Positions 50,553 to 52,649 of a stretch of 64,000 bases of DNA are shown here, in pieces. The notes under the pieces are model-generated. The model was given only the letters and a program-made list of their open reading frames with translations, was not told the origin of the DNA and searched no databases. Within the stretch, counting starts at the first letter, position 1. Every line of letters starts with the position of its first letter. Position numbers and translations under genes: made by a program. Source of the stretch: Bacteroidota bacterium (GTDB taxonomy: Bacteria; Bacteroidota; Bacteroidia; JABDFU01); the NCBI GenBank assembly GCA_013286805.1, contig JABDEY010000001.1, positions 6,051 to 70,050 of the forward strand, read 5' to 3'.

Positions 50553-52649
50553 TCACTTCAAAACATTCAATCTCTCCCTCGCCCGCTCAGCAATCCCACG
50601 ATCTCCCTCCAACGCAATTCCTTTCTCATACAATTTAACAGCCTCTTTCACATCAGACTTCTCCACCAGCGTAGCCCTCGACAAAAACAGCATCGCATAA
50701 TAATTCCGGATCATCTTAGACATTCGGTCATCCAGGCCAATTGAGCCACCATCCTGCTTAACATCCAAAGGAAAATCATACCTTGAATAATCCAGCGGGG
50801 TCAATTGCTCATCACCCAAAGCACTCCTTTCATTCCTCGCCCTTACCTTATACGCCACACCATAAGGTTCCAGAAAATAGCCCTCCGTAATACCCTTTTC
50901 AAGCGGGCGCATCAACGGAAAAACAGCAGCATACACAGGCATCGACTTAGCACTCCGGTCAATAAATGAACGCACCATCGCCAGATACTTAGCCTGCAAA
51001 TCCTGACCATCATAGGTGCCACCCTCCTCGAAGGGTCTGACAGCACTAACAAAAGCATCCACTTCTGCCTTGGAAGTCTCCAAAAGCAAAGGATACCAAT
51101 TCCTCAGCATTTTTATATACCAGGTTCTTCTCAGCATTTCCACATCCACAAAACAAACACCCTTGCCCTTGTGCTCCACCCACTGATAATAAATCATTGG
51201 GAAAGTAAAAGGGTCCCAGTTCGTCAGAACGAGGGCATTTGAGCCCGCCAGCTCCAAAACATTCTTTGCATAGTATTCGCTGAAATGATACCCGCTCATA
51301 TCCTCCTTCTTCATTTGTGACACAGAAAACCAAAGACTAAAAATCAACAGTGCAGTTGCTGCAACAACCGGCCAATAGCAGCTTCCGGTGCTCCAGCTCG
51401 CATTTTCAGAGGACTTCCCACCCAGCTTTCCGGCAGACTTCCCATCCGGCCTTTCCTGCAATTTTCCAGCCATGCCTTCAGCAATAAACAAACAACCTAA
51501 AGCGACAAGCCCGGCAACATATAAATACAAAGACAGGTAAAAAACAGAAATCGTTCCTTTCATCTCCTCCATCAAATCAACGGTCCTTGCCCGCAGTAAA
51601 TTAAAATTAAGCACATACGCAACGACAGGTCCGGTAAATAAATACACCAGCAAAGAAAAATAAAACAAATTCCTCCTCAGACGGAACAAAGCCAACATAC
51701 CAACGCCAGCCAGAATAAGGGGAACCAAAGAGAACTCCTCATACAGCAATCTCCAGTGCATTTGCAACTGAGCAACCAGCAATTTCGCTGTCCTCGGCTG
51801 ATCAAATGAATACTGATGTCGCCCAATCACCCTCCAGAAATTAGTCCAGTTTTCCGGGTCACCCCAATTCATATCAGGGTTTCTGCCAGCGGCAAGAGGC
51901 AAATACAGATAAGGCAACAAACCAATGAGCAGCAAACCTAAACCCGGGCCCATTCGCTTAAAATCGAATAGCCATTTACGGTCAATCATAAAAACAAAAA
52001 GAAAACCAAGGGGAATAAAAACCAGGGAAGTATGATGATTCGTACTACTTAAACCACAAAGAAAACAATAGGAGTAAAAATAAATATCCCTTTTCCTAAC
52101 GTACCATTTCAGCAGCAGCAAAAAGAACAAAGCAGCGAACAAATCATTGATGCCATATACTTCCGTAATCACCGCCTGTTCAAAGTAAGAAGAGCCCATG
52201 CCGGCTAAAATTGCCGCAGCAAAAGCAACGGCGCAAAGCACACTTATCCGGAGATCACCAGACAATTTCTGAATTGATTTCAAAAAACTCCCAACAGTCC
52301 AAAGCAGTTCCAGTACAACAAGAGAAATAACCCCTACACCCAGAGCCGAAAAAAACGCCGACATCAGGTTCAGGCGATGAGCAACATTACCAAAAGGTAA
52401 CAGGGAAAATAATCGTCCCAACATAGAAAAAAGCGGATACCCCGGTTCATGCGGCACCCCGCCTGAAAAGGCGGCAGTAATCAACTCCCCGCTATCCTCA
52501 AACGTTACAGAAGGTGCAAGACAGAGATAATAGATAATAAAACTGAAAAGAAAAGTCAGAGAAAACAGAAGGACAGACGCAGTCCTTCCTGGAGGACTAA
52601 AGGCAACAGCTAACGCGGGATTTGCTTTTTTTAAAGGGGCACGTTTCAC
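50553..52649 (-). CDS. DUF2723 (TMEM260-like) GT-C membrane glycosyltransferase with C-terminal TPR-like region
   Basis: Track ORF 698 aa with the hallmark N-terminal block [36 protein letters not shown]. It has ~11 TM helices, a soluble C-terminal domain, and a TPR-like tail ([14 protein letters not shown]). Confidence 0.75.
   Translation of the reverse strand: [698 protein letters not shown]

Follow-up and report, generated by a model that had tools for sequence, protein, structure and literature searches.

TMEM260-like glycosyltransferases in a Bacteroidota genome: conserved catalytic residues and candidate acceptors

We analysed a 64,000-nucleotide (nt) stretch of DNA from an uncultured Bacteroidota bacterium (assembly GCA_013286805.1, contig JABDEY010000001.1; hereafter the window), centring on the open reading frame (ORF) at 50553-52649 of the minus strand. 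The 698-residue product of this ORF, which begins with a GTG codon, is by sequence and profile comparison an inner-membrane glycosyltransferase of the GT-C class and a new member of the very large and already known TMEM260 family (DUF2723; PF11028). We call it the short form, to set it apart from a larger paralogue, the long form, at the end of the window. On the strength of its relationship to the human enzyme, we place a probability of about 0.55 on its being a periplasm-facing, inverting O-glycosyltransferase that depends on a polyprenyl-phosphate sugar, with Ser/Thr residues of proteins as the leading candidate acceptors. The catalytic apparatus that was defined in human TMEM260 in 2026 is intact in two bacterial subfamilies, which makes both of them testable candidates for periplasmic protein O-glycosylation, and it is in such testable hypotheses, not in the locus itself, that the value of the analysis lies.

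Family membership and catalytic residues of the short form

The Pfam family PF11028, "Protein O-mannosyl-transferase TMEM260-like", matches residues 52-222 of the short form with 119 bits (E = 2.5e-34), far above its gathering cut-off of 24.2 bits. The single sequence aligns to human TMEM260 (PDB chain 9RQL_A) over residues 38-516 against 38-478 with E = 1.3e-22, and a profile made from 51 bacterial homologues aligns to the same human protein (9RQL) over positions 31-494 against 31-482 with E = 1.3e-73. The nearest homologue among the GTDB representatives is 54% identical. No PMT, PMT_2, ArnT or YfhO Pfam match was found in the 698-residue protein. Its AlphaFold2 (AF2) model, with a predicted local distance difference test (pLDDT) score of 91.6 and a predicted template-modelling (pTM) score of 0.93, runs from a GT-C transmembrane core through a five-stranded alpha/beta (Rossmann-like) domain to three terminal helices. 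GT-C enzymes alone give significant Foldseek matches to this model, headed by PglB, ArnT, STT3, ALG9/12 and Pmt4; the PDB library used lacked 9RQL, such that TMEM260 itself could not appear and the matches are those of a generic GT-C protein.

Human TMEM260 (PF11028, 707 residues; structures 9RQL, 9RQM and 9RQN) is a GT-C protein O-mannosyltransferase which uses dolichyl-phosphate-beta-mannose to modify the IPT domains of plexins, MET, RON and fibrocystins. According to a 2026 preprint that combines cryo-electron microscopy (cryo-EM) with mutagenesis, D52 and H67 of its sugar-recognition motif are essential, the D52A enzyme and an H67 substitution both being inactive. Equally essential are R264 and Y267 of the donor-loading loop, which contact the phosphate and the sugar, respectively (R264A and Y267A are inactive), while D441 in the luminal Rossmann-like domain is the proposed catalytic base (D441A is inactive). 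The same work assigns a mannose contact to R355 on transmembrane helix (TMH) 10, although R355A retains about 20% activity, and describes a five-helix TPR lobe in whose "fingers" a ladder of Asn residues (N602, N638, N642 and N680) recruits the IPT domain's extended A-strand. The peptides that the human enzyme modifies are extended.

An active-site comparison with TMEM260 had been proposed in an earlier note on this DNA, made from the sequence alone, and equivalents of D52, H67, R264, Y267 and D441 are all present in the short form. The sugar-recognition motif occupies residues 50-74 (nt 52428-52502, minus strand) in the first periplasmic loop; this is the block that the earlier note had quoted, and its alignment to the human block brings D52 and H67 opposite the human residues of the same numbers, both kept in 51/51 short-form homologues. 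The donor-loading-loop motif GRHQY (residues 276-280; nt 51810-51824, minus strand) aligns R277 with human R264 and Y280 with human Y267, and these are kept in 50 and 49 of the 51 homologues, respectively. At the start of the Rossmann-like domain, an ungapped alignment block containing TNWDPFTFP (residues 476-484; nt 51198-51224, minus strand) places D479 opposite the catalytic base D441, and this residue too is kept throughout the 51 sequences. Human D464 and E466 also have equivalents in the short form.

The human structures and mutants suggest, by homology, the following mechanism. Sequence and GT-C precedent would put the basic N-terminus in the cytoplasm, with loop 1 and the C-terminal lobe both on the periplasmic side. 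The transmembrane core would bind a polyprenyl-phosphate monosaccharide, with D52 and H67 recognising the sugar and R277 and Y280 engaging phosphate and sugar. D479 of the periplasmic Rossmann-like domain would then deprotonate the hydroxyl of the acceptor, and the transfer would be inverting. Most likely the acceptor is a Ser or Thr of Sec-exported proteins that are still extended; we favour a protein because the only characterised member of the family is a protein O-mannosyltransferase which acts on extended chains.

Several observations weigh against this assignment. Human R355 aligns to V369, in a stretch of lower alignment confidence, and Val is found there in 48/51 homologues; with this Arg replaced, the transferred sugar is perhaps not mannose. 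Beyond approximately residue 516 the acceptor-binding lobe could not be aligned to the human protein with either the single sequence or the profile, the AF2 model ends in three helices in place of the human five-helix TPR lobe, and PF28495 (TMEM260_2), recorded for most homologues, is not recorded for the 698-residue protein. Nor are the human residues that contact the acceptor, R439, G440 and P443, conserved. Homology thus gives good support for donor chemistry and catalysis but not for acceptor recognition. No polyprenyl-phosphate sugar synthase of family GT2 was found in the window, and GT2 genes make up just 2 of 97 genes flanking family members elsewhere. Lipids or glycans are the acceptors of many bacterial GT-C enzymes. 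Literature searches on bacterial DUF2723 returned no function and no biochemical data for any bacterial member, in agreement with the statement in the earlier note that these proteins have no assigned substrate.

A long-form paralogue and its deacetylase partner

The long form lies at 61725-64000 and beyond on the minus strand, with the C-terminal 757 residues inside the window. Its full gene of 1161 codons was read from the Logan contig SRR8433205_51 (L002:1249-4734), and the window sequence is found both there and on an 89-kb NCBI contig. A Pfam scan of the visible 757 residues gave no match because the N-terminal domain falls outside the window; the precomputed annotation of the full protein has PF11028, PF28497 and PF28495 (TMEM260_2). 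The two paralogues match one another by BLASTP (E = 5e-14 and 1e-11) in the first-loop motif and the TMH8-11/Rossmann-like region, and the long form matches human TMEM260 with E = 2.7e-12. Eight residues (D34, H49, R437, Y440, R681, R683, D772 and D774) are invariant in 60 long-form homologues, and among them D34, H49, R437, Y440 and D772 are the equivalents of the human catalytic set (60/60). Three further motifs can be located within the window on the minus strand, namely GREQYG (63888-63905), PRERDY (63156-63173) and TNGDND (62889-62906). This subfamily is strongly conserved, with at least 8000 candidate homologues at E<=1e-10, the best 120 of which show 48% identity or more along most of their length.

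Judged by these alignments, the two window genes are true members of the TMEM260 family. The earlier note had recognised a pair of DUF2723 paralogues here, which is borne out by PF11028 at 119 bits in the short form and by the three Pfam families of the full long-form gene. It had also given both proteins a GT-C core and a TPR-like C-terminus. The core stands; as to the TPR-like end, three helices close the chain in the short form, with no TPR family detected, and the long form has PF28495 and a weak TPR-type match (TIGR02917, E ~0.002).

Immediately downstream of the long form, at 60982-61674 on the same strand, is a 230-residue CE4/NodB-type polysaccharide deacetylase (PF01522) with a TFDDGP motif and no signal peptide; its NCBIfam matches are to NodB/PgdA-type families, all under the curated cut-offs. 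A long form followed on the same strand by a CE4/NodB deacetylase of 180-230 residues, after a gap of 3-66 nt, was found in 4/4 loci (the window, 60982-61674 with 61725 to beyond 64000, both minus; L087 6001-10010; L088 4647-8524; L089 6001-9866), and all other neighbours differ among the four. This suggests that the long form and the deacetylase constitute a two-gene unit, presumably similar to the ArnD-ArnT and LgmC-LgmB pairs. No GT2 gene adjoins the long form, and no CE4 partner stands beside the short form. The pairing hints at a possible de-N-acetylated lipid-linked sugar donor. We regard the long form, from its sequence and gene order, as a separate and strongly conserved Bacteroidota enzyme, coupled to a predicted cytoplasmic CE4 deacetylase and carrying the same catalytic set as the short form.

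The deacetylase bears directly on whether the acceptor is a protein at all. One or both DUF2723 enzymes may instead decorate lipid A or the lipopolysaccharide (LPS) core, a cell-envelope polysaccharide or an exopolysaccharide, in the manner of ArnT, LgmB, Emb/Aft and GtrC-type GT-C enzymes, and for the long form the donor could then be a polyprenyl-phosphate aminosugar. The CE4 deacetylase that follows the long form in every locus examined, with no signal peptide in the window copy, speaks for such a role, and the absence of R355 from the short form, its lack of substrate-linked gene context and the ranking of ArnT and oligosaccharyltransferases as high as PMTs in the Foldseek search all point the same way. 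The CE4 partner is, however, exclusive to the long form and comes with no adjoining GT2 gene, and Pfam matches to PMT_2, ArnT or YfhO are absent. Among characterised relatives, the closest is a protein O-mannosyltransferase, and the invariant catalytic base in a soluble domain is a feature that goes with peptide acceptors in the human enzyme. We consider a non-protein acceptor possible but less likely, and retain protein Ser/Thr as the leading one.

If the acceptors are indeed proteins, the general O-glycosylation system of the Bacteroidota comes into view. According to a 2025 review, neither the oligosaccharyltransferase nor the ligase nor the machinery for the core glycan has been discovered in this system; the review gives mannose as the reducing-end sugar and recommends a search for homologues of eukaryotic O-mannosylation enzymes. 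YfhO has been proposed for Bacteroidota O-glycosylation in a 2026 preprint, yet it is absent from Porphyromonas gingivalis, which is nevertheless O-glycosylated. The supplementary tables of two glycoproteome papers contain an inner-membrane DUF2723 protein of 124-125 kDa (PGN_0192 in P. gingivalis and BWX39_09045 in P. intermedia) which is expressed and is itself O-glycosylated. Our literature searches found no paper that links TMEM260-like proteins to Bacteroidota O-glycosylation and nothing relevant on PGN_0192/PG2144.

It is conceivable, then, that the Bacteroidota TMEM260-like enzymes, above all the long form, start phylum-wide O-glycosylation by transferring the mannose of the reducing end from a polyprenyl-phosphate sugar to Ser/Thr, with the short form, which is patchy, serving as a paralogue for other acceptors such as IPT/TIG domains. 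We give this idea a low weight, about one chance in eight, because it is opposed both by the CE4 partner and by en-bloc transfer, the accepted model, and a mannose donor would leave the CE4 enzyme unexplained. The general system targets the motif D-(S/T)-(A/I/L/V/M/T), of which the two IPT-bearing giant proteins described below have 6 copies each, against about 9-10 expected. Were the long form or the pair to initiate general O-glycosylation, a gap of more than 15 years in the Bacteroidota machinery would close; were the short form to modify IPT/TIG domains, the pairing of enzyme and domain would be older than animals.

IPT/TIG domains of the nearby adhesins as candidate acceptors

The two giant adhesins are type IX secretion system (T9SS) cargo and are both encoded on the minus strand. 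The one at 15098-22456 has FG-GAP, Ig_7, HYR and Por_Secre_tail domains and two IPT/TIG domains; its translation probably begins at M48 (nt 22315), after which comes a signal peptide. Domain 1 (residues 84-160; nt 21977-22207) scores 29.5 bits with PF01833 (E = 7e-7), has matches to Sec5 IPT structures in the PDB and starts no more than 3 residues past the predicted end of the signal peptide (...LHAQ TPTITSFNPSSGAPGTVVTISGTNLG...). Domain 2 (residues 553-631; nt 20564-20800) scores 37.2 bits (E = 3e-9) and matches the "IPT/TIG domain protein" 4hw6 with E = 7e-4. Both were scanned in isolation, against a PF01833 cut-off of 20.9 bits. The second giant, at 33746-40216, combines FG-GAP, Ig_7, Sortilin/BNR, HYR and Por_Secre_tail domains with a single IPT/TIG domain, domain 3 (residues 766-841; nt 37694-37921), which a hidden Markov model (HMM) of the three copies finds with E = 3.6e-39. 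By BLASTP, the copies are 59-69% identical to each other, domain 3 being 59% and 69% identical to the other two.

A hmmscan of three whole giant proteins (15098-22456 and 33746-40216, together with 2408-10555 on the plus strand) had listed no TIG domain at E<=10. This proved to be a false negative. A phmmer search of the 15098-22456 giant against the PDB matched three Bacteroides "IPT/TIG domain" proteins and Sec5 IPT at residues 553-627 and 84-160, the isolated scans gave the scores above, and a scan of the three giants chopped into 220-residue windows found TIG in 5/61 overlapping windows, domain 3 among them. The missed domains are a filter artefact on very long proteins (2100-2700 residues), and domain inventories of such giants need chopping. 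The earlier note had counted three IPT/TIG domains in two proteins, and this count holds. As a separate observation, the 15098-22456 giant also matches the Aureispira grappling-hook protein GhpA (PDB 9flp; E = 1.8e-44) in 13 stretches, including residues around 1050-1335.

The earlier note had gone on to suggest that these domains might be substrates of the DUF2723 enzymes. In its specific form, the suggestion is that the short form, with or without the long form, is a dedicated O-mannosyltransferase for a B-strand Thr of the adhesin IPT/TIG domains, acting in the periplasm during Sec export. The cargo proteins carry predicted signal peptides and would therefore cross the inner membrane unfolded, fitting the extended-peptide mechanism of TMEM260, and the first IPT/TIG copy begins directly after its signal peptide. 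Three genuine TIG domains are present, and their A-B strand segment PTITSFNPSSGAPGTVVTISGTNLG has both prolines, Gly at -4 and Thr at 0 followed by I-x-G-x-N-L-G, as in the acceptor peptide of human PLXNB2 (...822ILGSNLG). In all three copies a Thr stands at the position homologous to the human acceptor, within the context G-x3-T-I-x-G-x-N-L-G, with QTPTITSFNPSSGAPGTVVTISGTNLG as a candidate acceptor peptide. None of the three domains contains the D-S/T-x motif of Bacteroidota (no D-[ST]), such that any glycan there would need another enzyme.

The shared residues, however, are a fold hallmark of any TIG domain and carry little information. The published IPT-domain sequon of TMEM260, P-x5-P-x3-G-P-x2-[GA]-G-G-x2-[TS], is absent: the bacterial segment lacks the GGG triplet, is two residues shorter and has a single Gly at that place, and regular expressions for two published forms of the sequon and for a GG-containing IPT hallmark found no match in any window ORF. 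A later preprint has TMEM260 tolerating considerable sequon variation.

The genomic context lends the link no support. Short-form homologues that are 54%, 40% and 36% identical each have different neighbours, and when the Pfam families of 97 genes flanking 53 family loci were counted (proteins of more than 800 residues excluded), there was no recurrent partner and no TIG among the families listed. The commonest immediate neighbours across phyla were prepilin-type N_methyl (5), PlsY (4), TPR (3) and GT2 (2), numbers too small to interpret. The three-copy HMM and a regular expression, a narrow test that is insensitive to divergent TIG domains, found none in the sequence flanking about 85 family loci. 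In giants encoded beside three other Bacteroidota homologues, TIG was found in 0/55 chopped Pfam windows, and the domains of these proteins are instead FG-GAP, ASH/HYDIN-type Ig, Big_5 and PKD_6. The family itself extends well beyond phyla known for T9SS, to at least 570 GTDB species and 23,879 clusters at 50% identity (E<=1e-3), with members in Actinomycetes, Chloroflexota, Patescibacteria, Planctomycetota, Verrucomicrobiota, Nitrospirota and Hydrogenedentota. To our knowledge, these seven groups have no T9SS.

One of the homologues (P0022, 36% identical) lies between two giant genes encoding 7601 and 4972 residues (L086 1-7513 and 11324-17983). The visible parts of these giants have FG-GAP, Big_5, Laminin_G_3, NosD and ASH/HYDIN-type Ig domains and no TIG.

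We think it probable that the co-residence arose by chance, the three GT-C genes of the window (the third is described below) and the IPT adhesins being functionally unrelated in a genome dense in T9SS cargo. Five T9SS cargo genes lie within the 64-kb window; at this density, chance alone would be expected to bring such genes close, and co-residence is weak evidence. In other Bacteroidota, too, homologues have T9SS or giant genes no more than 10 kb away, with other domain types, and the clustering of three GT-C genes is absent from the other loci examined. This explanation has its own weak points: cargo density was counted in the window alone, so that an enrichment near these genes could exist, and, being compatible with whatever the enzymes do, it does not compete with any functional assignment. 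The observations of the earlier note are confirmed throughout. Of its interpretation, then, TMEM260-family membership and the catalytic residues stand, while the dedicated IPT/T9SS substrate does not, given neighbourhoods that are not conserved, the lack of TIG near homologues and the absent sequon. We judge the dedicated role improbable. The IPT/TIG domains of the nearby adhesins are plausible acceptors on chemical grounds, without genomic support, and the locus is unremarkable, one case of a widespread family lying next to adhesin genes that are themselves abundant.

The third GT-C protein is encoded at 41639-43093 on the plus strand. This 484-residue membrane protein has a first-loop motif, THDEA, and no Pfam, NCBIfam or PDB sequence match. 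Its AF2 model (pLDDT 90.9) finds ALG12 (6e-6), ALG9 and ArnT by Foldseek with TM-scores of 0.53-0.55, and also PglB, STT3 and AftA, which agrees with its listing in the earlier note as an ArnT/PMT-like GT-C candidate. On the model, it is a third and unrelated GT-C protein. Its family has 56 homologues, all those with a taxon name being Bacteroidota, and D37 and E38 of the first loop are at least 90% conserved in 41 sequences. At one locus, a homologue (P0131; L090 4194-7401) lies 32 nt downstream of a signal peptidase I gene (Peptidase_S26) on the same strand, an arrangement not seen in the window.

The remaining features of the window concern the surroundings of these genes. A protein with GH18, CUB and T9SS C-terminal domains is encoded at 52697-54511 on the minus strand, 47 nt upstream of the short form, and is not kept beside homologues. 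Between the two DUF2723 genes, at 54603-58383 and 59085-60851 on the plus strand, are genes for a transglutaminase-like DUF3857/DUF3858 protein, a 643-residue protein with no family and a DUF4139/DUF4140 protein. A molybdenum-cofactor cluster (MoaA-like radical SAM, MoeA, a MoaC-MogA fusion and MoaE) at 22486-30607 separates the two IPT giants and is seemingly unrelated. A scan of 48.3-54.8 kb for promoters and terminators, with a consensus that is not of the Bacteroidota type, returned nothing clearly over the shuffled background (18 promoter-like sites against 11.7 +/- 3.8; 7 terminator-like sites against 7.2), and Rfam gave no match in 40-64 kb.

Comparison with known systems

The general O-glycosylation of Bacteroidota is likewise periplasmic and has mannose at the reducing end, and both P. 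gingivalis and P. intermedia possess the long form. Its accepted model is nevertheless one of en-bloc transfer from an undecaprenyl-linked glycan, and the published candidate, YfhO, belongs to another family.

The lipid A aminosugar systems ArnT-ArnD and LgmB-LgmC share with the long form alone the placement of a GT-C gene beside a signal-peptide-less PF01522 deacetylase, and ArnT is a top structural match. They differ in sequence family, the window genes not belonging to theirs, and neither adjoining GT2 or flippase genes nor any sign of a lipid A acceptor was seen here.

The protein O-mannosyltransferases PMT/POMT (GT39), TMTC (GT105) and actinobacterial Pmt have in common with the window enzymes the GT-C fold, an acidic first-loop residue and, on the leading reading, both a donor of the lipid-phosphate-mannose type and unfolded secretory proteins as targets; Pmt4 and Pmt1/2 are among the Foldseek matches of the short form. 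Unlike PMT/POMT and TMTC, the short form has no PMT or PMT_2 Pfam match and no MIR domain, and its putative base lies in a soluble Rossmann-like domain and not in loop 1 alone.

Human TMEM260 differs from the bacterial enzymes in its donor lipid, which in bacteria must be a polyprenol and not dolichol, and in its strict sequon, which is absent from the window. It differs from the short form in particular by R355, replaced with Val, by R439, G440 and P443, which are not kept, and by five end helices where the short form has three. The two proteins are nevertheless alike in length (698 versus 707 residues), in the GT-C core, in the start of the Rossmann-like domain and in the order of their parts.

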